Positions 1-13,300 of a stretch of DNA of 13,300 bases are shown in pieces. How positions within the stretch are numbered: position 1 is the first letter of the stretch; the number at the start of each line of letters is the position of its first letter. The notes beneath the pieces were generated by a model. It was not told where the DNA came from. It saw only the letters and a list, made by a program, of their open reading frames with translations, and did no database searches. Made by a program: the position numbers and the translations under genes. Source of the stretch: a virus (Duplodnaviria > Heunggongvirae > Uroviricota > Caudoviricetes); IMG/VR virus record IMGVR_UViG_2681813205_000017, positions 1 through 13,300 of that record; one strand, 5' to 3'.

Positions 1-162
1 ATTACTGCTTCAGGTTGGTGTATTGCTTGCATCTTTCCCTTTTCATTCATAAAGATAGATCAAACAACAAAACCACCACCACCCCCCTGAAAAGGCTCAT
101 AAATAGCGAAAATCCGCGAGGTCTCCGCCCCGTAACAGGTCCATATGCCGGAAAGGACCCGC

Positions 163-184
163 AAAAAAGCCGGATTTCTCCGGC
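163..184 (-). terminator. Intrinsic terminator ending the capsid operon (GCCGGA-GAAA-UCCGGC stem-loop plus U6 on the - strand)
   Basis: 6-bp GC-rich stem with a GNRA tetraloop followed by six U on the - strand RNA, 7 bp downstream of the stop of the 191..604 gene. Confidence 0.7.
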
Positions 185-190
185 CTTGTC

Positions 191-604
191 TCAGATGGTT
201 TTCAGTATGCGATCGATGTCGCCGTCATCGCCCGGGTTTCTGCCATCGTATGCCATGCCAGCTGATACGGCTTGTGGGCTGTGCATGTCCATAAAGTTTT
301 CAAAGGCTGCGGTAAGCTCTGGTGCAACCTTCGGGCGTTCCTGCTCTATGGTCATGTTCAGGATGTTTTTAGCCGTATCAACATCAATACAAGGCACGTT
401 TGCCATTGCACGTAACAGCGGCTGATAGTCGTCAGATTCATGAAGCGCCATAATCGCATCAGCGCGCGGCTTGTCCTTCTCTTCCAGGCTGTTAAGTTGA
501 TATACGGCCTCGTAGGTTGATAAACCTCTGTCAGCCATTGCCCGCGCTTCGGCTTTAAATTTACTCGCCAGCGGTAGCGTCATGATACTTTCATTCGTTG
601 CCAT
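191..604 (-). CDS. Hypothetical protein, last gene of the capsid operon (137 aa)
   Basis: ATG at 604 preceded by a GGGGG Shine-Dalgarno. Starts 13 nt after the stop of the decoration-like gene and is followed by an intrinsic terminator. The + strand ORF 15..425 overlapping it lacks such context. Confidence 0.6.
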   Translation of the reverse strand: MATNESIMTLPLASKFKAEARAMADRGLSTYEAVYQLNSLEEKDKPRADAIMALHESDDYQPLLRAMANVPCIDVDTAKNILNMTIEQERPKVAPELTAAFENFMDMHSPQAVSAGMAYDGRNPGDDGDIDRILKTI

Positions 605-616
605 CGTTCCCCCTGC

Positions 617-952
617 TTATCGCGCCAGCGGCTGAACGGATACGCCAGAACCCGCAAAGGCGGCGCATTTTTTCGCGTCGGTGTCGGCGCTCTCAGGCCA
701 GTTAACGGCGGCAATATTGAATATCCCCGTCTTGTAGCACTGTGCTGATTTCTGCGTCGACGTGTCCACGGGGTACGAGGTCAGATAAACAGCCTTGCCA
801 GATTCCTGACCATCCCACGGCTTAAACTCGCCATTTTCCGCCAGCATCAGCGGGGTAAATTCCTGAATAACGCCAGCATCAGCAGCAAAATGTACCAGCG
901 TCGTGGATACCTGCTGACTACCTGCAAATAACTCAATGTATGGAGTGTCCAT
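617..952 (-). CDS. Head decoration protein, lambda gpD-like (111 aa)
   Basis: Translation shares recalled gpD motifs (TPLML, WDG, YK-G-F, WPE, KK-AFAG-VSV) and similar length. GGGGGG Shine-Dalgarno 5 nt upstream of the ATG. Immediately downstream of the capsid gene. Confidence 0.7.
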   Translation of the reverse strand: MDTPYIELFAGSQQVSTTLVHFAADAGVIQEFTPLMLAENGEFKPWDGQESGKAVYLTSYPVDTSTQKSAQCYKTGIFNIAAVNWPESADTDAKKCAAFAGSGVSVQPLAR

Positions 953-964
953 AGAATCCCCCCG

Positions 965-2020
965 TTAACCAATTTTGACGATAACAAATTTGCGAATATC
1001 TGCCGGTACCGGCTGCGGTGCGCTGTGCGTCTGCACGTACTCAATCGCCGGATCGCCGTCCTCAATCCAGTTTTTCGGGTAAAACATGTTTTGCGTTGCG
1101 CCCGTTCTGACCGCTTCCTGATCCATAATCGCACCATAGGCCACCAGCCCTTTATTGTTGGTGTTACCCAGGACCAGCAAATCAGGCTCAAGGAAATATT
1201 TTTCGGTGCCGTCGCTGTCAGTGTATTTGCCGGAATAGACGACAAGGGCAATATCGCCCAGATAGCCTTTAAAGCTCACCACTTCACCCAGGTTTTTACA
1301 GGCCAGTTCTGCGGCGGATTCTGAACCACGGGAAAGGTCGTACAGTTCGCGGAATTTTTTAAAGCTGCGTAACGTGCGCCATACTTCAGCGCCCATAATC
1401 ATGACGTTTGCGGGGCAATTGCCCTGATCAGCATAAAGCTCGATGTCATAGATTGGATCGTGTGTTTCTTTATCCAGCTCAGACCATTTTTTACCGTCAG
1501 CCTGTTCTATGATATTGCTTTCCGGGATCTTCCAGTCGATTTCATAGCGTTCTATGCCTTCGCCCTCAATGAGGTTTTTTCCGGTCGTTACCGCATTCAC
1601 CGCCAGCCATTCCACGCGTGCCTTAATGGCGTTTATCTGGCGGCGCATGTTGCCAGTAATCAGGCGCATACGGCGATAGGTAGGATCGTTAAGCTGTGCC
1701 GGATCTTCTCCAGCCATGCGCATGATGGTTTTTGTTGGATCGATTTCGTGTTTGGGTTTCATGTAGCCTGGTTTAATCGTGCTGGTTTCGTACCCTTTAT
1801 CGCGCTGGACCTGACTACCCACCATAGGCGAACAGAACGCTGACATCGTAACCTCTTCAATGTCCAGGGTGTCCAGAATGATGTTCTGGGTGTTGAAGGT
1901 CGCCACGTTCGGGAAAAACAGCGTGGTAAACAGCGGACTGAATTTAAATTCTGCAATATCCCCGCGATTCAGGTACGCGAAAAGCTGGTTAGTGTTAAGT
2001 GCCGTTGCTTTGCCTGCCAT
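965..2020 (-). CDS. Major capsid protein, lambda gpE family (351 aa)
   Basis: Translation aligns along its length with recalled lambda gpE (FKF-PLF, PGYMKPKHE, DPTYRRMR, LRSFK, RGSES, VVYSGKY, LVLGNT, YPKNW, GDPA, SAP). GGAGGTG Shine-Dalgarno; start overlaps the upstream stop (TAATG). Confidence 0.85.
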   Translation of the reverse strand: MAGKATALNTNQLFAYLNRGDIAEFKFSPLFTTLFFPNVATFNTQNIILDTLDIEEVTMSAFCSPMVGSQVQRDKGYETSTIKPGYMKPKHEIDPTKTIMRMAGEDPAQLNDPTYRRMRLITGNMRRQINAIKARVEWLAVNAVTTGKNLIEGEGIERYEIDWKIPESNIIEQADGKKWSELDKETHDPIYDIELYADQGNCPANVMIMGAEVWRTLRSFKKFRELYDLSRGSESAAELACKNLGEVVSFKGYLGDIALVVYSGKYTDSDGTEKYFLEPDLLVLGNTNNKGLVAYGAIMDQEAVRTGATQNMFYPKNWIEDGDPAIEYVQTHSAPQPVPADIRKFVIVKIG

Positions 2021-2226
2021 TATTCACCTCCATGCGTCTGATTCATGCCCAGCGCCGCGCGTAAATAGGCGCGGACCTGCCAGCCTGTTGACGGCTCAAC
2101 CATCGCCAGCGGATCAAGTCCTGCCGCAATGCCTGCTTTTACGTTCTGCTGGTGGCGTTCCTTGAGCGCCTTCACGATGTCGGGGCTTATGTACACCGAA
2201 ACACCGCCTTTTTTCTCTTCAGCCAT
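2020..2226 (-). CDS. Hypothetical small protein, first gene of the capsid operon (68 aa)
   Basis: ATG at 2226 with a purine-rich ribosome-binding site. Stop overlaps the capsid start codon (translational coupling). Lies ~55 nt downstream of a near-consensus sigma70 promoter. Confidence 0.6.
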   Translation of the reverse strand: MAEEKKGGVSVYISPDIVKALKERHQQNVKAGIAAGLDPLAMVEPSTGWQVRAYLRAALGMNQTHGGE

Positions 2227-2282
2227 AGTAAGAAATTCCTCTTCGACTTAAAAAATCATAACTGGATGTTTATCCAGTCCTG

Positions 2283-2310
2283 ATTATAATCAGAATTGCA
2301 TTTTATGCAA
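2283..2310 (-). promoter_or_regulatory. Sigma70-type promoter of the capsid operon (-35 TTGCAT, 16-bp spacer, -10 TATAAT on the - strand)
   Basis: On the - strand, TTGCAT (complement of 2305..2310) and TATAAT (complement of 2283..2288) with a 16-bp spacer. Both hexamers sit inside perfect palindromes (TTGCATTTTATGCAA and CTGATTATAATCAG). Confidence 0.55.
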
Positions 2311-2390
2311 TGATATTGAGTTATGTTGCAAATTATGAAATGATTATCCCGATCACGAACGCCAGTGCATCCAAAAACCTCATATGCAAA

Positions 2391-2429
2391 AGCCCGATAA
2401 GAACCCTCTGACCTTATCGGGCTTTTTTT
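2391..2429 (+). terminator. Strong stem-loop with T7 tract (AGCCCGATAAG ... CTTATCGGGCT TTTTTTT); + strand intrinsic terminator geometry, possibly bidirectional
   Basis: 11-bp stem followed by seven T on the + strand. On the - strand the same hairpin is followed by UUUUG. No + strand gene upstream, so it may act mainly as a second - strand terminator or insulator. Confidence 0.5.
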
Positions 2430-2435
2430 GGGCGC

Positions 2436-2457
2436 AAAAAAGCCGGATTGCTCCGGC
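2436..2457 (-). terminator. Intrinsic terminator after the 74-aa gene (GCCGGA-GCAA-UCCGGC plus U6)
   Basis: Same module as 163..184 and 2799..2821 but with a GCAA tetraloop; lies 20 bp downstream of the stop at 2478. Confidence 0.7.
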
Positions 2458-2477
2458 TATGTGTGCTGTGTGCTGGC

Positions 2478-2702
2478 TCAGTCTCTGATCTCTTTCAGAA
2501 ATTCTATCAATGCATCTATCTGTTCAGGATTTACCGCCAGCATTTCACCGGACAGAGCACATCTCACAAAACCATGCTGATCCTTTTCAATCAGTGCGCC
2601 CGTCTCCAGGAATGCGCGGTAATCATTGATGCTCATCGTCTCCATGTTGTCAGCATGGTATTTATCACGCTGTTTTAATATCTCATCAAATTTCATCGGC
2701 AT
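2478..2702 (-). CDS. Hypothetical protein (74 aa), monocistronic moron-like cassette
   Basis: ATG at 2702 preceded by AGAGGA. The gene is bracketed by intrinsic terminators on both sides (2799..2821 upstream, 2436..2457 downstream). Confidence 0.6.
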   Translation of the reverse strand: MPMKFDEILKQRDKYHADNMETMSINDYRAFLETGALIEKDQHGFVRCALSGEMLAVNPEQIDALIEFLKEIRD

Positions 2703-2798
2703 TGTTTTTTTCCTCTGTTGTGTCTGTTTGTTTCAGATAGTAACTATGCCTGACCGTGACGAAAACCCGGTAATGCGCCATACCGTTTCAACTGGTGC

Positions 2799-2821
2799 AA
2801 AAAAAGCCGGATTTCTCCGGC
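2799..2821 (-). terminator. Intrinsic terminator after the PerC-like gene (GCCGGA-GAAA-UCCGGC plus U7)
   Basis: GNRA-tetraloop hairpin plus U-tract on the - strand, 8 bp downstream of the stop at 2829. Confidence 0.7.
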
Positions 2822-2828
2822 TGTTTGA

Positions 2829-3104
2829 TTAGCTGTCCTGGTAATTGCGCCATATTTCATCACCAGCACCATCTATACCCATTTCGGCATAAGTGCGATC
2901 GACTGCCTTTTTCAGGTCTCCGAAATTATCCGGCGGCTCCGGTGCCCTCTGTGCCTTCCTTGAACATTCCAGCCGTCGCATCGTGATGTGATGCCGTTCC
3001 TTGTCTGTCTCCACCAGCTGCATGACTTCACCCCATCGCGCCGCCGCCCTCCGGTAAAAGCCTTTCGCCTCTAGTTCCTCCGCTATGCGGTCATGTACCA
3101 TCGT
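2829..3104 (-). CDS. PerC-family transcriptional regulator (91 aa)
   Basis: N-terminal AEELEAKGFYRRAAARWGEVM matches the recalled PerC/Pch signature (LE-G-WRRAA-RW). The likely start is the ATG at 3104 (GAGGGGG Shine-Dalgarno, 8 nt after the SSB stop) rather than the ORF-track start at 3221, which would overlap ssb by 110 nt. Confidence 0.65.
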   Translation of the reverse strand, partial: TMVHDRIAEELEAKGFYRRAAARWGEVMQLVETDKERHHITMRRLECSRKAQRAPEPPDNFGDLKKAVDRTYAEMGIDGAGDEIWRNYQDS

Positions 3105-3111
3105 CACCCCC

Positions 3112-3522
3112 TCAGAACGAAATATCATCACCGTAAGGGTCATCGCCTCCCGCTGGTGGCTGATTACCCTGTGTGCCTGTGGTTTTGCGTCTGTTCCCGC
3201 CAGGACGTGCCGCACGGGCACTGATTACGCTGTCTGCAATAACCTGATACCCCTGCCGTGTTTCCCCGTTCTGTCCGGTCCACTGGCTTACCTGCATCGT
3301 GCCGGATACGCTGGCAACATCGCCTTTTTGATGTTTAGCCAGGAAATCGGCCTGTTTGCCAAATGCGATAACCGATAACCATAACGTCGCCTGTCCGTCA
3401 TGTGCCTGGCTGCATGGCAACGATACCGCCATACGCGCCAGAGTCATCGGTGTGCCCTTGCTGGTCTGTTTTACCTGCGGGTCGTCCACCAGCCGCCCGT
3501 AAGCGGCTATCTGTGCCGTCAT
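3112..3522 (-). CDS. ssb: Single-stranded DNA-binding protein (136 aa)
   Basis: OB-fold core resembles E. coli SSB (W-x-x-V-x-x-FGK ... KG ... W), followed by a Gly/Gln/Pro-rich linker and an acidic C-terminal tail DDPYGDDISF (E. coli SSB ends DDDIPF). GGAGAGGTG Shine-Dalgarno; ATGA overlap with the upstream gene. Confidence 0.85.
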   Translation of the reverse strand: MTAQIAAYGRLVDDPQVKQTSKGTPMTLARMAVSLPCSQAHDGQATLWLSVIAFGKQADFLAKHQKGDVASVSGTMQVSQWTGQNGETRQGYQVIADSVISARAARPGGNRRKTTGTQGNQPPAGGDDPYGDDISF

Positions 3523-3770
3523 AATTCCACCTCTCCGGTTTTAACGTTGATGGTTGTTACCTGTTCCGCTTCGGCAATCTCCCGTTCTGTCAGCGTGGCA
3601 AAGTTTGCCGCCGCCGTGGTCATGAATGCGCTTATCAGGTCGGGATGTTCCTTCGCGTATCCTTCCCGCGTGTGGCGGTCTATCGTTCTGATTGCCACCT
3701 TTAAGGTGTGCTCAGTCATGTCTAACGCTTTATATTTTGGCTCTGTTCTGTCTCTGCGTTTTTGGGTCAT
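3519..3770 (-). CDS. Hypothetical protein (83 aa from the ATG at 3770; alternative start at 3800 gives 93 aa)
   Basis: ORF translationally coupled to ssb (ATGA overlap). The ATG at 3770 has a GAGAGG ribosome-binding site and avoids overlap with the iterons. Confidence 0.5.
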   Translation of the reverse strand: MTQKRRDRTEPKYKALDMTEHTLKVAIRTIDRHTREGYAKEHPDLISAFMTTAAANFATLTEREIAEAEQVTTINVKTGEVEL

Positions 3771-3782
3771 TTCTCGCAACCT

Positions 3783-3973
3783 CTCACTTTTTCGCCTCAC
3801 TTTTTCAAGCGTCTCACTTCGTCGCAGCTGGGATTTTCGGTTTTTCTATGTGTGTGTTTCATAAGTATTTTTTTACCCCTCACTTTTGAGGATGTATACA
3901 GGTCGAAAAGTGAGGGAGAGCAGGCTAATTTTGGCCCTCTTTCTATCCACCTCGCTTTTGCTCCTCACTTTTA
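3783..3973. repeat. Putative replication origin: six CTCACTT(TT) iterons flanking an AT-rich stretch
   Basis: CTCACTT copies at 3783, 3796, 3813 and 3879, an inverted copy at 3906..3915 (AAAAGTGAGG) and another at 3963, plus a degenerate copy near 3950. AT-rich segment 3836..3876. Lies directly 3' of the helicase gene. Confidence 0.55.
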
Positions 3974-5371
3974 TAGCGGCGCTACATCATCCCCATCGAT
4001 ACGAATAACCCCATCTTTTTCCAGCTTGTACAGCCAGCGCCGGAAGTTTTTCATTTCATACCCCAGCTTTTTCATGTCATCACGTAACAGCGGGATCGTG
4101 CACTTGTCGCCGTTCTGTGTGCGTGAACGGATGCACCCCCATAGCGCGGTATGGTTTTCCGTCTTGTTCCCTGCCTCCTCGATGCGCTCCAGTTCAACAG
4201 GAGGGCGCGGATCATCCACCACCACCAGCGACGTGATTAATTCACCGTCAGCGTCGGTAAAAAGCTCCACCACGCGTAAGTCATATGCGGCTTCTTTGAG
4301 TTCCTCCGCGTCCTTCATTTTGGTGCATGAGATAACCAGCGCTTCGCTTCCTGCGTCCTCCCTGCGTATCCGGTATTCAGCATCCAGCGAAGCACGAAAT
4401 GCACTGGAACCGCGCGCGCCTTTCGTCTCATCCTTGCCGGAATGGTGAACCACCAGCACCGTGGCCCCTGTGCGTCGTTTCAGTTCGTCACAACCACGGA
4501 TAAACGCCCCCATATCACGGGAATCATTTTCATCATTCCCACCAAAGCAACGCGCCAGCGTATCCAGAATAATCATGCGTACAGGTTTACCCGTTTCCCG
4601 CTCCACCTGACGGGCAGCGATAACCATTTCATCAACATCAAGCGGGGCAGCCGGAAAGATGGGGCGGTTTACCAGATACAGATTTTTCACCTGCTCATCG
4701 TGCACAACCTCCCAGGCTTTTACACGACGCGGAACACCTATACCGCCTTCACCAACCACATAGAGAACCGCACCATGTGCAACCCTGCGGCCTCCCCACT
4801 GGCGACCAGTGGCAACATGGCACGCCCACGATCCGGCAAGGAATGATTTATAGGACCCGCTAGCCCCGTATATGCTGCATAGCGATACCGCCGGAATAAT
4901 CCCCTTAACCACGTAATCCAGTTGCGTGTCGTATCCGGTAGATCCAACGCTCATCGGTAGCGTGGTTTTTCGCTGGTGGTTTTTTTCTTCCGCCGGCTCT
5001 TTCCCGCGCACCCGTTCCAGGTATTCGCGCCAGTTCTCCCGCATATGGCTGTGCATCCCTTCGGGGTAATAATTCGCATCAGTTACACCCGCCGCCGCCA
5101 GCTTGTGCGCAATGGCATTAATATTTGATGGCCTGATGTGGCCTGCCTTGTACAGCCGGACACAATAGCGCCCCTCGTCGATGATTCTCAGGTCTGCCAG
5201 TTCATCCAGTTGATCATCAGCCAGCACAACGGGAGGCACATTATCGCCAGCCAGTCGCCCGTCCTGTTCCTGCCACTGTTTCGCATGTGCCCAGGCATCA
5301 CTACCCGCAAAAATAATGACTTCGGTCATCTTGTCGTAAGGCTGTTTTTTTAAGTTCGGTGCGCTTTTCAT
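3971..5371 (-). CDS. Replication initiator / replicative helicase, RecA-fold ATPase (RepA / AAA_25-like), 466 aa
   Basis: Walker A-like GASGSYKS, Walker B-like MIILDTLARCF, and VLVVHHSGKD typical of RepA/DnaB-like helicases of satellites and plasmids. ATGA overlap with the upstream gene; iterons immediately downstream. Confidence 0.75.
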   Translation of the reverse strand: MKSAPNLKKQPYDKMTEVIIFAGSDAWAHAKQWQEQDGRLAGDNVPPVVLADDQLDELADLRIIDEGRYCVRLYKAGHIRPSNINAIAHKLAAAGVTDANYYPEGMHSHMRENWREYLERVRGKEPAEEKNHQRKTTLPMSVGSTGYDTQLDYVVKGIIPAVSLCSIYGASGSYKSFLAGSWACHVATGRQWGGRRVAHGAVLYVVGEGGIGVPRRVKAWEVVHDEQVKNLYLVNRPIFPAAPLDVDEMVIAARQVERETGKPVRMIILDTLARCFGGNDENDSRDMGAFIRGCDELKRRTGATVLVVHHSGKDETKGARGSSAFRASLDAEYRIRREDAGSEALVISCTKMKDAEELKEAAYDLRVVELFTDADGELITSLVVVDDPRPPVELERIEEAGNKTENHTALWGCIRSRTQNGDKCTIPLLRDDMKKLGYEMKNFRRWLYKLEKDGVIRIDGDDVAPL

Positions 5372-5667
5372 TTCTTGCCCCTGAATCCGTTAATCATGGT
5401 TTTCAGCTTCTGGATGTTTGCCCGTGCCCTGGCGTTGCTGGTGGGCACGTTATGCGGCGCGGTCTGTACCAGAGAAAAATCACGCCGGAACTGATAAACA
5501 GGCATCACGCAATCATATTCGTAACCTTCACGGCGGTAGGTTACGCGCCGTTCTTCCACGCCCTTAATCATTACCGTGCCGCCGTACTGGTCGCGGTAAA
5601 TATCACCGCGCGTAAATTTAGGGTGAGTGTTGCCACTGGCAGTTAAGCCAGAATATTTAAGTTTCAT
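5368..5667 (-). CDS. Hypothetical protein (99 aa), translationally coupled to the helicase gene
   Basis: ATG at 5667; stop overlaps the helicase start (ATGA). Basic, Tyr/Arg-rich; no recognisable motif. Confidence 0.55.
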   Translation of the reverse strand: MKLKYSGLTASGNTHPKFTRGDIYRDQYGGTVMIKGVEERRVTYRREGYEYDCVMPVYQFRRDFSLVQTAPHNVPTSNARARANIQKLKTMINGFRGKK

Positions 5668-5672
5668 TATTT

Positions 5673-5906
5673 TTATTCTCCGGTGTGCTGTTCTTTATAT
5701 CTGTCGTGCAATAGATCTATTTCTTGCAGTTCCATTATTACAGGATCAAGAAGCGTTATTAATGCCGTGGCAATTCTTGATTTTTGTTTGTCGCGTTCAT
5801 TGTCGCCAAGTGTTTCAAGCCATATGCGCAATATTTCCAGCATGTTTTCACTGTGAGAAAGTGCAAGAAATGCGCGGTCTATTGTTTGGTGGTAAATATC
5901 ACGCAT
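5673..5906 (-). CDS. Hypothetical protein (77 aa)
   Basis: ATG at 5906 overlaps the stop of the upstream gene (ATGCGTGA). Part of the same coupled gene chain. Confidence 0.55.
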   Translation of the reverse strand: MRDIYHQTIDRAFLALSHSENMLEILRIWLETLGDNERDKQKSRIATALITLLDPVIMELQEIDLLHDRYKEQHTGE

Positions 5907-6357
5907 GGCTTACATCCTCAGGAAATTTTCTTCTATAACGCGCCTCTGCCACATATTCCGCATAATCGGCGGCGATATTCAGTACATCAAGCCCCGTTGA
6001 TTTATATTCTCTCGTGGAAAGTAAGAAAAAAGCCGCTCTAATAAGTTCTGGCATTGACGAAAGCGCATCAGCCGCATCATCAGGAACGCCGGAAAATTCC
6101 TGTTTCAGGGAATTAAAACGATCATCACGCATAACCCCCCCCCCATTTTCACAATCAGCAACAAGAATATTTTTAGCGTCATTCAGCGACCGCGTTGCGG
6201 TGTATCGGATACATTCCAGGGCGAATAGTGTGTATTCTTCCCTTTCTTCCCTTTCTTCCTTTTGTGCAAGCTCTGCTGTGCATTCAATATCAATAAGCGC
6301 GTGCATCAGCGTAGTGAGTGCGGCGGCGGCTGCGTCCGGTGTGGTTTTATTGCACAT
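5899..6357 (-). CDS. Hypothetical acidic protein (153 aa from the ATG at 6357) containing an in-frame G10 tract
   Basis: ATG at 6357 has a GGAGGGG Shine-Dalgarno 3 nt upstream. The ORF-track start at 6411 has no ribosome-binding site and would overlap the upstream gene by 65 nt. Contains an EEREEREE repeat and the Gly-Gly-Gly encoded by the C10 run at 6135..6144. Confidence 0.55.
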   Translation of the reverse strand: MCNKTTPDAAAAALTTLMHALIDIECTAELAQKEEREEREEYTLFALECIRYTATRSLNDAKNILVADCENGGGVMRDDRFNSLKQEFSGVPDDAADALSSMPELIRAAFFLLSTREYKSTGLDVLNIAADYAEYVAEARYRRKFPEDVSHA

Positions 6358-6577
6358 GTACCCCTCCGCATTTTTTTTCGTTAGAAATAAGCGTTCTTCT
6401 TTCCTGTTCATCGATCAGGAATACGCAGACCTCACCGCTAAGGCGTTTAAGTAAGCCGATGATTGCCCCTGATTCGCTGTCGGTCATCATGCCTGGGTAA
6501 TCCTCTGCCAGTGCGCAAATAACTTCGATTTGGTGGGCGCGTTCTACTGCCTGTTGTAGTGTGATTTCCTGGCTCAT
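6347..6577 (-). CDS. Hypothetical protein (76 aa)
   Basis: ATG at 6577 with a GGGGG ribosome-binding site; ATGA overlap with the candidate upstream ORF. Contains an A8 tract on the coding strand. Confidence 0.55.
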   Translation of the reverse strand: MSQEITLQQAVERAHQIEVICALAEDYPGMMTDSESGAIIGLLKRLSGEVCVFLIDEQERRTLISNEKKCGGVHVQ

Positions 6578-6774
6578 AAGCCTACCCCCTGACGAATACG
6601 GGCAGCGAATACCATCACGCAGCCAGCCGGGGATTGCAGGCGTGCTTCCTGTTCGCTGGTGGCCTCAATGGTAATCACGCGCGGTTGTGCAGTGCTCAGG
6701 GCGATAAAACGCCAAATGTATTTATTCAGGTTGTGCGAGTCCCGCCCTTGCGGGTGTGTGGTATGATTTCTCAT
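6574..6774 (-). CDS. Candidate small ORF (66 aa), putative first gene of the early operon
   Basis: Not listed separately in the ORF track; it is the C-terminal end of the spurious 381-aa ORF. ATG at 6774 with a GAGG ribosome-binding site 6 nt upstream; stop overlaps the next start (ATGA); ~100 nt downstream of the predicted - strand promoter. Confidence 0.4.
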   Translation of the reverse strand: MRNHTTHPQGRDSHNLNKYIWRFIALSTAQPRVITIEATSEQEARLQSPAGCVMVFAARIRQGVGL

Positions 6775-6872
6775 AGCTACCTCGATACTCTCGTTATCGT
6801 TGGTGGTTAGAAGCCCCGTTACTGCTCCTACAGTGCGGGGTTTCGTCGTTTCTGCACCTTGCATTAACAAGG

Positions 6873-6950
6873 TGTAAGTAACTTTATTTATAGGTGGCTT
6901 ACATGTCAATGCTTTTATGTAAGACTTTTTATGTGTATATTGTCTTACAC
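6873..6950. promoter_or_regulatory. Divergent switch region: four TGTAAG / CTTACA operator half-sites overlapping a - strand TTGACA-N17-TAAAGT promoter
   Basis: Half-sites at 6873 (TGTAAG), 6898 (CTTACA), 6919 (TGTAAG) and 6945 (CTTACA), alternating in orientation. On the - strand a perfect -35 TTGACA (complement of 6904..6909) and a -10 TAAAGT (complement of 6881..6886) with a 17-bp spacer. Confidence 0.5.
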
Positions 6951-6970
6951 TTTCATTGAGAGGATTACAG

Positions 6971-7276
6971 ATGGCTACAGGTTCAAAAAACGCAAAATCA
7001 CAATCACTGACAGCTCGGATCCCGCATGATGTTATTGAAGGCATGGAATCCGTAAAACTGGACGGTGAAAGCAACGCCGGATTCATAGTAACCGCCATGC
7101 GCGGTGAAATCGCCCGCCGCCAGGCAGAAGGAAGCGGAGAAAACCTCCTGATTTCTTCGCTCAATGCACTGGCGCAGGTGGAAAAACTCGGAATCAAAGC
7201 CGCCGAGGAGATCGGGCAGCTCGTCACTGTCGCACGTGAAGAACTCCAGCGCCGCAAGACTAAAGAACCAGAGTAA
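6971..7276 (+). CDS. Putative transcriptional regulator, candidate repressor of the early operon (101 aa)
   Basis: ATG at 6971 with a GAGAGGA Shine-Dalgarno. Divergent from the - strand operon and immediately downstream of the operator cluster. Function is inferred from position only. Confidence 0.55.
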   Translation: MATGSKNAKSQSLTARIPHDVIEGMESVKLDGESNAGFIVTAMRGEIARRQAEGSGENLLISSLNALAQVEKLGIKAAEEIGQLVTVAREELQRRKTKEPE

Positions 7277-7318
7277 TCACCATCAGCGCCGTGGTGTAAG
7301 GTATTACGGCGCATTGCT

Positions 7319-7507
7319 ATGCAGGACAACACAATGACCGATAAAGAATTGACCAAAACATTATCACCGGCACGGAAAAGACGGCGCAGAAAGATAGAGC
7401 ATGAATCAGAAAGATTCGCGCCATGTGCTTTTGCCCTTGAGCAATTCCTTAAAGAGTACAGGGAAAAGCGCTCATTGCAGGTATGGCAACGAACTGAACC
7501 AGACTGA
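7319..7507 (+). CDS. Small basic protein (62 aa; alternative start at 7334)
   Basis: ORF following the regulator on the same strand, with a Lys/Arg-rich stretch (ARKRRRRK). Followed by an intrinsic terminator at 7603..7630. Confidence 0.4.
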   Translation: MQDNTMTDKELTKTLSPARKRRRRKIEHESERFAPCAFALEQFLKEYREKRSLQVWQRTEPD

Positions 7508-7602
7508 TAGCATTGCCCACCAGCCTGATAGCGACTATCATTGCCGTTCTTATGTTTGGGATCACACACACAAACGGCGCAGCGGGTTATCTGTTCAGAA
7601 AG

Positions 7603-7630
7603 GCGGCTCCATTTCGGGGCCGCTTTTTTT
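7603..7630 (+). terminator. Intrinsic terminator for the + strand regulator genes
   Basis: GCGGCUCC ... GGGGCCGC stem (one G-U wobble) with a 5-nt loop, followed by seven T. Confidence 0.6.
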
Positions 7631-7776
7631 ATGTCTGAAAAACCCCAATTTTGTTGTTTTTCAGTTTCACCAGGGCGAACGAATCCCCGCCCACGTTCTG
7701 GCGTATATTCAATCTTCATGGTTATAGCTCTGTGTTCAGATGATTGATGTGTGGCGGCTGCGTGCCGCCAGCGTGA

Positions 7777-7965
7777 TTAATGAACTGCCTTGCAGCTATC
7801 CTTCCAGGCCAGAACCTCGGATAAAGACCAGCCAACGGAACGACCGCCAAGTTTACGACGTGATGGGAATTGTCCGGCCTTTTCCAGGCGGTAGCGACAC
7901 GTACGGCTAAGGCCGGTTAGTTTTTCGCATTCTTTTTCACGTATAAACCGATCAGTGCTTAACAC
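7777..7965 (-). CDS. alpA: AlpA-family phage regulator / excisionase-like protein (62 aa from GTG at 7965)
   Basis: CEKLTGLSRTCRYRLEKAGQFP ... GGRSVGWSLSEVLAWK matches the AlpA helix-turn-helix signature. The ORF track starts at a TTG at 8046, but a GTG at 7965 has an AGGGGGG Shine-Dalgarno and gives the typical AlpA length. Confidence 0.75.
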   Translation of the reverse strand: MLSTDRFIREKECEKLTGLSRTCRYRLEKAGQFPSRRKLGGRSVGWSLSEVLAWKDSCKAVH

Positions 7966-8238
7966 TATTGCCCCCCTTTCGTTTCTTAAAGAGTCATCAG
8001 GTGTCTTATTGTGTCGTATTGTTCCCGCTAGAGTGATGAATGGCAAATATTGAGGATGTATGATTTACAGAAAATGAAACAGTAAGAATAAAATCTTTTA
8101 AATTCATGTTAATACAAAGGCATAAAATATTGTTTCATGCCTTTTTTCTCACGCGTTAAAGCGTTATTCGCTAATGTATAAAAAAACAGTCACACAAATA
8201 AAATCAGTCACTTATAAACCTGTGTACTTTTTCGCCTC

Positions 8239-8288
8239 TTGTTCGTGGTTGTTCCACGTTGTTTCACATTGTTCGCCGTTGTATCTGT
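8239..8288. repeat. Five tandem 10-bp units each beginning TTGT (helically phased) between int and alpA
   Basis: TTGTTCGTGG TTGTTCCACG TTGTTTCACA TTGTTCGCCG TTGTATCTGT, an exact 10-bp period. Confidence 0.6.
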
Positions 8289-8330
8289 GTGCTTATCCAG
8301 TATGCGCATACTGAAAAAACACGAAAAAAA

Positions 8331-9548
8331 TTATTTTCTTCTGGCTGCTGGTAGTGCGGTTACGTTTTCATGTGTTCCCGCCAGTATCCCTAACCGCTCC
8401 ATCCACATATCCAGCGCATTGCGTTTAGCATCCAGATAACGGGAATGATTATAAACTCGCTGCATTCCTGGCATCTGGTGGCCTGTAAGCTGCTCCACGA
8501 CATGCGGATCAACGCCTAAATCGTTCAGCATGGTTGTAAAGGTGCGCCGGATGTCATGCAGTGACCAGTGAGGATGATTAAGCCTCCTGTGCGCTAATCT
8601 TCCATACTGCGATACGCTGGCCTCCTGTTTCACTTCCCCCAGCAATAAGCCCGTGTGCCTGTTCTGCTCCACCAGCTGCGTGACGAACGGCAGTATTGCT
8701 TCCGGTATGGGCCGGAATATTGCCACCTTCGTTTTGCTGTGTTCTTTCGGCACGGTCCAGAGCATTTCGGTAAAATCCCACTCGCTGATCTCCGATAACC
8801 TCAGTTCTACCGTCCGGCATCCGAACACAATCAGGAGGCGGATTAACGCGATGTAGTAGGGGGAGAATATTTTTTTGTCCAGTGCCTGCAATAATTCGCC
8901 CAGTTCTTTGGTGCTTAAGACACGCTCGCTTATATCCGGTTTTTTCCCAACGTCCGCCACACTCATATCATCAAGAACGTTGCTGATTGCATAGCGCCGC
9001 CTCCGGCAGAACTTAAGCGCCTGTTTGCACGTCTGTAGCAAGAATCCGGCAGTAACAGGCGTTCGCTTTGCCACCTGGTCAAAACAGGCCAGCCAGTGCC
9101 GTAGCTCGCATTTATCCAGCGGCATAGCACCAATGTGCTGTATTACGTGATTATTAAGTCGCCTTTTCAGGGCGATATAATCCACGCGGTTTTCCTTTAC
9201 GTAATACTCAAGCCAGTAGGTGAGCGCATCGCCAACCGTTACGGGCTTTAACGCTTCCTGTACGGTGTAATTCATCTCATGACGTGGATTTTTCCCCTCA
9301 GCCAGCCATGTGCGACACTGTGCGGCTTTTTCCCTGGCTGCTTTCAGGCTCAGATCAGGATAACTTCCCAGCTTAATGCGTTCGGGTCGTGTCTCCCTTC
9401 CCGTTCCGGCCCTGTATGTGAAATACCAGGTCAATTTCCCTGATGTTAAATATTTCACGCTCAGGTTTCCGCCATCACTATAAAACGTGTTTTTCTCCGC
9501 TGGCTTACCATGAAGTTTCCTTAGCAAGGTATCGCTCAGTTTGTTCAT
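8331..9548 (-). CDS. int: Tyrosine integrase, P4-like family
   Basis: N-terminal arm-binding-type motif (KPAEKNTFYSDGGNLSVKYL), C-terminal catalytic region with HDIRRT and VYNHSRY (R, H-x-x-R, Y). Start is probably the ATG at 9548 (MNKLSD...); the ORF track uses a GTG at 9560. It is the outermost island gene next to the junction. Confidence 0.85.
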   Translation of the reverse strand: MNKLSDTLLRKLHGKPAEKNTFYSDGGNLSVKYLTSGKLTWYFTYRAGTGRETRPERIKLGSYPDLSLKAAREKAAQCRTWLAEGKNPRHEMNYTVQEALKPVTVGDALTYWLEYYVKENRVDYIALKRRLNNHVIQHIGAMPLDKCELRHWLACFDQVAKRTPVTAGFLLQTCKQALKFCRRRRYAISNVLDDMSVADVGKKPDISERVLSTKELGELLQALDKKIFSPYYIALIRLLIVFGCRTVELRLSEISEWDFTEMLWTVPKEHSKTKVAIFRPIPEAILPFVTQLVEQNRHTGLLLGEVKQEASVSQYGRLAHRRLNHPHWSLHDIRRTFTTMLNDLGVDPHVVEQLTGHQMPGMQRVYNHSRYLDAKRNALDMWMERLGILAGTHENVTALPAARRK

Positions 9549-9584
9549 TGCTCTGCTCACGTTTTACCCCCTCTTTACGAAAAA

Positions 9585-9650
9585 GTGACTACACCAGTGA
9601 CTACACCGATCGTTGCACAAAGGGCTACAACGTGAAACAAGCTGGAACAA
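9585..9650. promoter_or_regulatory. int upstream region with a 12-bp tandem repeat (GTGACTACACC x2) and four 10-bp phased units ending ACAA; candidate arm-type or regulator binding sites
   Basis: GTGACTACACCA GTGACTACACCG at 9585..9608. CGTTGCACAA AGGGCTACAA CGTGAAACAA GCTGGAACAA at 9611..9650, which is the reverse complement motif of the array at 8239..8288. Confidence 0.45.
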
Positions 9651-9757
9651 GGAAAATCACAAATCTGTTGATAATCAAAAACATAATGCACAGCCTGAAA
9701 CATTATGAAACAGCAAAAAACACTAAATGATAAAATGCTGTTATTCTTAACCCGCTG

Positions 9758-10642
9758 GTGCAACACATGGTCCGCTGGCGAGTGCCGCGTGTACTGGCGG
9801 TGTCGATTTTGATGACCATCATCGTGATGGCGATGGTGTTGCTATTAGCTTATCTGGGTTCCGCGCTCAACGAGTTGACGCGGACGTTACCGCAATATCG
9901 CAACTCTATTATGACGCCGCTGCAAGCTCTTGAGCCGTTGTTGCAACGCGTAGGGATTGACGTCTCAGTTGACCAGCTGGCGCATTACATTGATCCGAAC
10001 GCGGCGATGACGTTGCTCACCAACTTATTGACGCAGTTATCTAATGCCATGTCATCAATATTTTTATTGCTGCTGACGGTGCTGTTTATGCTGCTCGAAG
10101 TGCCACAATTGCCCGGAAAATTTCAGCAAATGATGGCGCGTCCGGTTGAAGGGATGGCGGCGATTCAACGTGCAATTGACAGTGTTTCTCATTATCTGGT
10201 GCTGAAAACAGCCATCAGCATCATCACCGGCCTGGTCGCCTGGGCGATGCTCGCCGCACTCGATGTTCGCTTCGCTTTTGTCTGGGGATTGCTGGCCTTT
10301 GCGCTTAATTACATCCCTAATATTGGTTCAGTTCTCGCGGCAATCCCCCCTATCGCTCAGGTACTGGTGTTTAATGGCTTCTACGAAGCGTTGCTGGTGC
10401 TGGCGGGATATCTGCTGATTAATCTGGTCTTCGGCAATATTCTGGAGCCGCGCATCATGGGACGTGGGCTGGGGCTTTCCACATTGGTGGTATTTTTGTC
10501 GTTGATTTTTTGGGGATGGTTGTTAGGACCGGTGGGTATGCTGCTTTCCGTGCCGTTAACAATTATTGTCAAAATTGCGCTTGAACAAACAGCGGGAGGT
10601 CAAAGCATCGCCGTTCTGTTAAGCGATCTCAATAAAGAGTGA
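9758..10642 (+). CDS. tqsA: AI-2 exporter TqsA (YdgG), 5'-truncated by the island insertion (294 codons retained)
   Basis: Translation matches recalled E. coli TqsA from its internal [15 protein letters not shown] segment to the C-terminal SDLNKE. An in-frame TAA at 9731..9733 lies directly upstream and there is no native N-terminus or ribosome-binding site. The ORF-track start is an internal GTG. Confidence 0.8.
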
Positions 10643-10662
10643 CGGCCTCCGCAGAGGCCGTC
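10641..10662. terminator. Shared stem-loop between convergent tqsA and pntB (GACGGCCTC-cgca-GAGGCCGTC)
   Basis: 9-bp perfect GC-rich inverted repeat lying exactly between the two stop codons. Confidence 0.55.
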
Positions 10663-10666
10663 AGGG

Positions 10667-12058
<1,392 letters not shown>

Positions 12059-12065
12059 TTACCCC

Positions 12066-13300
<1,235 letters not shown>

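Follow-up and report, generated by a model that had tools for sequence, protein, structure and literature searches.

The stretch of DNA analysed here (the window) is the whole of draft contig JXWM01000029.1, 13,300 nucleotides (nt) long (assembly GCA_000932215.1), and it carries what appears to be a phage-inducible chromosomal island (PICI) inserted in the Escherichia coli gene tqsA. As seen in the list of open reading frames (ORFs), the composition profile, and the tRNA scan of the window, a block of minus-strand genes of ~9.7 kb is followed by tqsA, pntB, and pntA. The contig stops inside the island. Protein families were assigned by Pfam, PHROGs, and NCBIfam profile searches. The features that identify the element are the following; identities are to the homologues in EcCICFT073, the prototype island at ycfD(roxA)-phoQ, and lengths of proteins are in amino acids (aa).

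86–165, minus strand: lambda-type cos site, cosQ and cosN followed by about 45 nt (80-nt local alignment to the lambda right-end/left-end junction).
191–604, minus strand: 137-aa protein of the morphogenesis module (PHROG 1999, 4e-63; 94.2% identical).
617–952, minus strand: head decoration protein, homologue of lambda gpD and equivalent of c1500 (Pfam HDPD, 1e-17; 95.5% identical).
965–2020, minus strand: major capsid protein, homologue of lambda gpE and equivalent of c1499 (Pfam Phage_cap_E, 9e-50; 95.7% identical).
2020–2226, minus strand: 68-aa ORF, the first gene of the capsid module (PHROG 3255; 97% identical).
2437: module-swap point, with the backbone common to the capsid-forming PICIs (cf-PICIs) of the tqsA site on its right and the lambda-type module on its left.
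3112–3522, minus strand: single-stranded-DNA-binding protein, SSB (Pfam SSB, 9e-17; 97.8% identical).
3782–3972: replication origin directly 3' of the helicase gene, with six iterons CCTCACTTTT, one of which is inverted.
3971–5371, minus strand: replication initiator and helicase of the RepA/AAA_25 type, a published allelic variant of Pri-Rep (Pfam AAA_25, 2.4e-43; PHROG 2850 and primase/helicase families).
7777–8046, minus strand, with an annotated 62-aa form at 7777–7965: AlpA regulator (Pfam Phage_AlpA, 1.5e-16; 93.5% identical).
8331–9560, minus strand: tyrosine integrase with P4-type arm-binding and catalytic domains (Pfam Arm-DNA-bind_3 and Phage_integrase; 92.6% identical).
9736–9744: right end of the island at the attR core TGCTGTTAT, whose reverse complement is ATAACAGCA.
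9745–10642, plus strand: 3' remnant of tqsA, codons ~46–344, with the promoter and the first ~45 codons cut off.

Judged by gene order and sequence similarity, the element belongs, with a probability of about 0.85, to the EcCICFT073/EcCI042 family of Gram-negative PICIs, and the window would show the integrase-proximal ~9.7 kb of an island of ~11 kb. A distinctive characteristic of PICIs is a unidirectional gene order with alpA downstream of int, and this order is found here; all clear genes but one lie on the minus strand. The integrase lies at the island end beside a dedicated site with a short direct repeat, and the element's own initiator gene is followed directly by an iteron origin, both of which are typical of PICIs. 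The same applies to size and gene content: complete relatives measure 11.0–11.4 kb, and the Pfam and PHROGs searches found tail, lysis, and most structural genes to be absent from the window. The window is 96–98% identical in nucleotide sequence to the EcCI042 island over about 92% of its length, and its proteins are 92.6–97.8% identical to those of EcCICFT073 (Int, AlpA, Icd-like, RgdR, SSB, c1499, c1500, and the 137-aa ORF). This type of satellite has been published already. Gram-negative PICIs were defined by Fillol-Salom et al. 2018 (PMC6092414). The family, the capsid and decoration genes, the regulators, and the tqsA site were all described in 2018–2019, and close homologues have been studied experimentally.

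The original prediction, which was made from the letters of the window, had recognised a satellite of PICI layout and not a lambdoid prophage arm. This assignment is borne out by the complete relative in strain 042, which is 11 kb long and has no large terminase, portal, tail, lysis, cI, cro, or Q gene. The genes it had listed (int, alpA, regulators, helicase, ssb, and capsid operon) are genuine according to Pfam, PHROGs, and NCBIfam, and the iterons are genuine too. In the defence profile search that it had proposed, PADLOC gave no match among 19 proteins. No Rfam family was found in the window at gathering thresholds. Two other classes of element do not fit. Genes for cI, cro, N, Q, large terminase, portal, tail, and lysis, by which a lambdoid prophage would be known, are found neither in the window nor in complete relatives (for large terminase, portal, tail, and lysis genes, these are 042, O26 strain 97-3250, and CFT073). 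Sid, Psu, delta, epsilon, and the alpha primase-helicase, which mark P4-like satellites, have no Pfam or PHROG matches in the window, and what the window shares with such satellites is limited to integrase, AlpA, and Icd-like homologues.

Three points count against the assignment. The left end is absent from the window; the last ~1.5 kb of the island, comprising terS or rpp, a 93-aa ORF, and attL, lies beyond position 1. Helper dependence and packaging of this copy are extrapolated from EcCICFT073, the only island for which induction, excision, replication, high-frequency transfer, and helper interference have been shown (PMC6092414). Finally, in the published test EcCI042 did not yield transductants from the strain that naturally carries it (PMC6092414, Table 1, 'O42 1749::cat <1'), so that activity of a tqsA-site island is unproven.

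E. coli K-12 MG1655 is colinear with the window from position 9736 onward only, which corresponds to nt 129 of the 1035-nt tqsA. The 9-mer TGCTGTTAT occurs at 9736–9744 of the window and once at the K-12 attB (nt 129–137 of tqsA), and it flanks EcCI042 as a direct repeat. An insertion inside tqsA and not at a tRNA, as had been predicted, is thus what the locus holds, since the K-12 alignment is broken at 9736 and there is no tRNA in the window; relative to K-12 the locus is interrupted, and a colinear alignment free of any insertion was not obtained. The predicted extent of 1–9770 was right about the tqsA junction and wrong about the right end, where the core lies about 26–34 nt earlier. The proposal to map both junctions and the duplicated core against K-12 could be carried through for the right junction and the core; the left junction is outside the window.

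Integration into tqsA had been called unusual, and this part of the prediction does not stand, as tqsA is the catalogued attachment site of this PICI family. EcCI042 (FN554766.1 1832521–1843554, 11 kb) and EcCIK1516 are both listed in tqsA with the att core ATAACAGCA (PMC6092414, Table S1). In a set of 5,426 complete E. coli genomes, this integrase adjoins tqsA in 247, and every tqsA occupant examined is a PICI or a cf-PICI. In the literature, tqsA as a PICI site was not found in main texts; it is given in the supplementary Table S1 of PMC6092414.

The insertion splits tqsA, the gene of an AI-2 exporter, after about codon 45, and the island supplies no replacement 5' end. The left fragment reaches a stop after three foreign codons, whereas the first start in the right fragment is a GTG at 9758 (an open frame of 294 codons) or an ATG at 9767. 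In relatives, both pieces are pseudogenes according to RefSeq.

Although the element can be placed in a known family, the contig itself may not represent any single island. The related genome UGAL01000001.1 holds two PICIs, an EcCICFT073-type island at roxA-phoQ (L010) and a cf-PICI at tqsA (L008), and 250-nt bins of the window alternate between 100% identity to the former and 100% identity to the latter. At the 345 informative sites in 1–9736, the window matches L010 at 196 and L008 at 149, with none that matches neither, and changes parent about 17 times. Positions 1–2436 are found in L010 only, and 6189–6583 and 6876–7236 in L008 only. The host flank (9737–13300) differs from UGAL01000001.1 by 1 nt. 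The hybrid integrase (the 405-aa call, 8331–9548) occurs in 1 contig of the public collection, and each parental allele in at least 1000 contigs; likewise, the hybrid SSB (3112–3522) occurs in 1 contig and each of its parental alleles in at least 999. The arrangement of the window is found in 0 of 5,426 complete genomes. Judged by these base-level comparisons, the contig is likely to be an assembly chimera of two co-resident PICIs, the EcCICFT073-type island of roxA-phoQ and the cf-PICI of tqsA, which the original prediction had no means of seeing. In the simplest reading, assembly collapsed two paralogous islands, and its path or consensus jumped from one to the other. The linkage of the lambda-type capsid module (1–2436) to tqsA in this contig is probably an artefact of assembly, because the window is an exact mosaic of two co-resident islands. 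If the contig is chimeric, the strain is likely to have a cf-PICI at tqsA, and the lambda-type capsid genes would then be part of its roxA-phoQ island. An equivalent island of the same content lies between roxA and phoQ in CFT073 and in O26 strain 97-3250. PICIs with a lambda-type capsid do insert in tqsA, as in 042 and other complete genomes.

Several observations tell against a chimera. One switch falls between informative sites that are 22 nt apart, and the isolated site 6589 is only 2 nt away from one that matches the other parent. Switches this close are beyond a large-k de Bruijn assembler; they need a small k-mer or a consensus-type assembler, or real recombination. Natural mosaicism is also common among these islands; that of 042 is a mosaic too, but a different one. 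The contig could then be correct and represent a genuine recent recombinant, a PICI in tqsA of an O26-like lineage that gained an EcCICFT073-type lambda capsid module by repeated gene conversion between two resident PICIs. Two islands replicating in one induced cell would have ample opportunity to recombine, and complete genomes such as 042 place lambda-capsid PICIs in tqsA. Nevertheless, a real recombinant seems unlikely: it would have to combine about 17 alternating blocks with zero private substitutions at the informative sites, its hybrid Int and SSB would be confined to exactly one public contig when the parental alleles are found in at least 999, and the contig ends inside the island with an arrangement seen in no complete genome.

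A chimeric origin would have consequences beyond this contig. Where a strain has several related satellites, its draft contigs can mix them at the level of single bases, with combinations of genes and sites that do not exist and with hybrid proteins, and satellite catalogues built from draft assemblies may contain chimeras. Hybrid Int and SSB proteins of this kind may also contaminate protein databases.

The tqsA site is shared with true cf-PICIs. Such an element is present at tqsA in O26:H11 11368 and many other strains, and the cf-PICIs of this site share the window backbone 2437–9736 at about 98% identity. The backbone from int to the 74-aa ORF thus carries, at tqsA, either the lambda-type module or a complete HK97-type cf-PICI head module. 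Position 2437 is regarded as a module-swap point because the same backbone adjoins a full head module in some islands and a small lambda-type module in others. The element under study is not a cf-PICI: portal, protease, large terminase, HNH nuclease, and head-tail connector, by which cf-PICIs are defined, are found neither in the window nor in complete relatives, and to the left of the 137-aa ORF the complete relatives add only an rpp or Nu1 gene and a 93-aa ORF.

The original prediction had rightly noted lambda-E-type capsid and D-type decoration genes carried by the element itself, but as an observation this is not new, since a capsid gene has been reported in 21 of 29 reference Gram-negative PICIs (PMC10111431). 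Identity to the lambda proteins is 43.6% for the capsid protein (lambda E) and 38%, over 76 aa, for the decoration protein (lambda D). The capsid protein matches PDB entry 3BQW (E 2.6e-231), the crystal structure of a near-identical protein; among 50,697 phage records, there is no relative of it above 47% identity. Relative to their EcCI042 copies, the capsid and decoration genes show dN/dS values of 0.11 and 0.08, respectively, and the gene of the 137-aa protein a value of 0.30.

The 137-aa protein has no Pfam, NCBIfam, or PDB match, no tblastn match in the 50,697 phage records, and nothing by BLASTP against lambda Nu3, C, W, FI, and FII. It matches weakly the C-terminal (scaffold-bearing) part of the head-maturation-protease family PHROG 53 (6.7e-9). 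Its homologues are close E. coli copies only, some of which are named 'head-tail connector' by NCBI. An AlphaFold2 model of it is all-helical but unreliable (pLDDT 45, pTM 0.21) and too poor for a fold search. By sequence comparison, the capsid, decoration, and 137-aa genes form an old, satellite-specific lineage under purifying selection, because dN/dS is low, the capsid protein has at most 47% identity to any phage record, and the 137-aa protein has no phage match.

Does the element build its own capsids? A likeness to capsid-forming satellites had been predicted, and a satellite of this kind would build its own (small) capsids from the lambda-E- and lambda-D-type proteins and take the other parts from the helper. 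In favour of such a role, the island has genes for a full-length capsid protein of the HK97 fold, for a decoration protein, and for a helical 137-aa protein that weakly matches PHROG 53; all three genes are under purifying selection, the capsid protein differs from those of all sequenced phages, and the same backbone elsewhere bears a true cf-PICI head module at the same position. However, the head genes named above are absent from the window and the complete relatives, and deletion of c1499 or c1500 in EcCICFT073 changed neither transfer nor interference with lambda, with all packaged DNA being phage-sized (PMC6092414; PMC6893505). The likeness is therefore limited to the capsid, decoration, and 137-aa genes; the EcCICFT073 homologues of the first two are dispensable, and the DNA of that island is packaged in phage-sized heads (PMC6092414). 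A satellite that forms its own capsids is very improbable here.

It is a known puzzle that most Gram-negative PICIs retain a selected, phage-unlike pair of capsid and decoration genes that was dispensable in the sole system tested. One conjecture, to which we give little credence, is that the gpE-like, gpD-like, and 137-aa trio is not a relic and that, with particular lambdoid helpers, it builds or co-assembles heads using the portal, protease, and terminase of the helper. If this were true, islands bearing the trio would be a functional intermediate between classical PICIs and cf-PICIs, two groups that exchange head modules at backbone position 2437.

That the window is one arm of a full-size or decayed lambdoid prophage can be dismissed: it has lambda-family capsid, decoration, and cos homologues (and Nu1 in relatives), but its gene order is int-alpA-rep-ori with no cI, cro, Q, lysis, or tail genes, the complete relatives are flanked by host genes, lie between 9-bp direct repeats that are 11 kb apart, and extend 1.5 kb past the left end of the window, and the complete 042, CFT073, and O26 loci rule it out.

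The life cycle that may be proposed for a PICI of this kind is taken from the experiments on EcCICFT073, in which AlpA is a helper-induced activator (PMC6092414), and it is conjectural for this copy. A lambdoid helper phage would turn on alpA, AlpA would activate the island, and Int would excise it at the 9-bp core. The RepA-type helicase, together with the island's own SSB, would then start replication of the island at the iteron origin that directly follows the helicase gene. The helper terminase, redirected to the lambda-like cos site by a small-terminase-like protein that the island itself encodes (of the Nu1 type in the identical relative, Rpp in 042 and CFT073), would cut and package the concatemers there. 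Packaging would be into capsids and tails built by the helper. RgdR and PerC, for their part, are accessory regulators of the LEE virulence locus.

The motif CCTCACTTTT has 8 matches in the whole window against 0.93 expected, and 0 of 200 shuffles reached 8. Placement of the origin 3' of the replication gene is the PICI arrangement, as in EcCICFT073 (PMC6092414). The 12-nt equivalent of the cohesive end is GGGCGGAGACCT at 119–130, with one mismatch to lambda GGGCGGCGACCT; because this match alone is at chance level, the cos call depends on the 80-nt alignment to the lambda junction. Similarity to lambda ends where cosB would start. EcCICFT073 has two cos sites (cos1/cos2) with lambda-like cosQ and cosN and a different cosB, and Rpp redirects the small terminase of the helper to the island cos site (PMC6739421). 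In L010, which is 100% identical over 1–2436, the cos site is upstream of a Nu1-like terS (PF07471); the terS/rpp gene lies just beyond position 1 of the window. A diverged inverted copy of the cos site (82% over 76 nt) is seen in relatives on the far side of terS/rpp (L001 14221–14296 and L003 5259–5323), and the two copies match the published cos1/cos2 pair.

Comparison with known systems places EcCI042 (E. coli 042; Fillol-Salom et al. 2018, ISME J) among those closest to the window. It has the same site, core, 11-kb size, and gene order, the same lambda-type capsid/decoration/137-aa module, a RepA-type helicase, rgdR, and perC. The two differ in a variable stretch of ~0.9 kb (about 6350–7245), and the capsid module is 82–96% identical by 250-nt bin. 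In 042, the 137-aa ORF is followed on its left by an Rpp-like gene of 144 aa, an ORF of 93 aa, the tqsA 5' fragment, and mdtJ, whereas the island of the window presumably carries a Nu1-type terS, judging from its identity to L010. EcCICFT073 resembles the window in its lambda-like cosQ and cosN with a divergent cosB and in its iteron origin after the replication gene, but it has a different attachment site and core (GGACATATTT), a primase-type Pri-Rep in place of the RepA-helicase allele, and uses RppA.

The cf-PICIs (EcCIEDL933 and the O26:H11 11368 tqsA element) have the integrase, tqsA junction, and regulatory and replication backbone of the window, with 2437–13300 about 98% identical. They carry an HK97-type capsid, protease, portal, head closure protein, connector, HNH nuclease, TerS, and TerL, which the window lacks. 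P4 shares a P4-type integrase, an AlpA/Vis-like regulator, an Icd-like gene, its own replication protein, and a helper cos site with the window. In contrast to P4, the window has no Sid, Psu, delta, epsilon, or alpha primase, its helpers would be lambdoid and not P2-like, and no plasmid state has been described. SaPIbov5 Ccm is, like the capsid protein of the window, a satellite-borne homologue of the helper major capsid protein; Ccm redirects capsid size and interferes, whereas the EcCICFT073 homologue did neither in published tests.

The remaining genes of the island are the following.

2478–2702, minus strand: 74-aa conserved ORF (PHROG 1957).
2829–3101, minus strand: PerC-family transcriptional activator, an accessory virulence regulator (Pfam PerC, 1.2e-42).
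3519–3770, minus strand: 83-aa conserved ORF (PHROG 1231; annotation of relatives).
5368–5667, minus strand: RgdR (DUF4222), 99 aa (Pfam DUF4222, 1.6e-24; 93.9% identical to CFT073 C1493).
5673–6577, minus strand: three small conserved ORFs of 77 aa (5673–5906), 152 aa (5899–6357), and 76 aa (6347–6577) (PHROGs 2196, 2512, and 1478; L018 gene calls).
6574–6774, minus strand: 66-aa homologue of Icd-like cell-division inhibitors (NCBIfam phage_ICD_like, 4.9e-19; 97% identical to the CFT073 homologue).
6971–7276, plus strand: YlcI/YnfO-family protein, the only clear plus-strand gene of the island and the 'divergent' partner (NCBIfam YlcI_YnfO_N, 5.5e-20; PHROG 6522).

A scan of 6400–9800 for promoters and terminators stayed at chance level. 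The 381-aa ORF at 6574–7719 on the minus strand is rejected as a gene: its homology is confined to the last 66 codons, which are Icd-like, and a PHROG 6196 match covers residues 292–379 only. This ORF also overlaps the YlcI/YnfO gene on the opposite strand. The true start of the 152-aa ORF is internal to a longer ORF of 170 aa. The segments 6189–6583 and 6876–7236 are variable, being absent from the roxA-phoQ island and different from those of the 042 island; the former holds most of the 76-aa ORF, and the latter most of the YlcI/YnfO gene.

RgdR, which was discovered in O-island 51, regulates motility and the LEE pathogenicity island and is defined by its RGD motif (PMC3378721), which in the window protein is residues R20-G21-D22. 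Both rgdR and perC are listed as accessory genes of EcCI042 (PMC6092414, Table S1). The Pfam match and the RefSeq calls use the 90-aa form of PerC (2829–3101). Its ORF can also be read from an upstream GTG, as a 130-aa form (2829–3221, minus strand) that overlaps the 3' end of ssb, and a 42-aa ORF (2744–2872) annotated in relatives overlaps the 3' end of the PerC gene.

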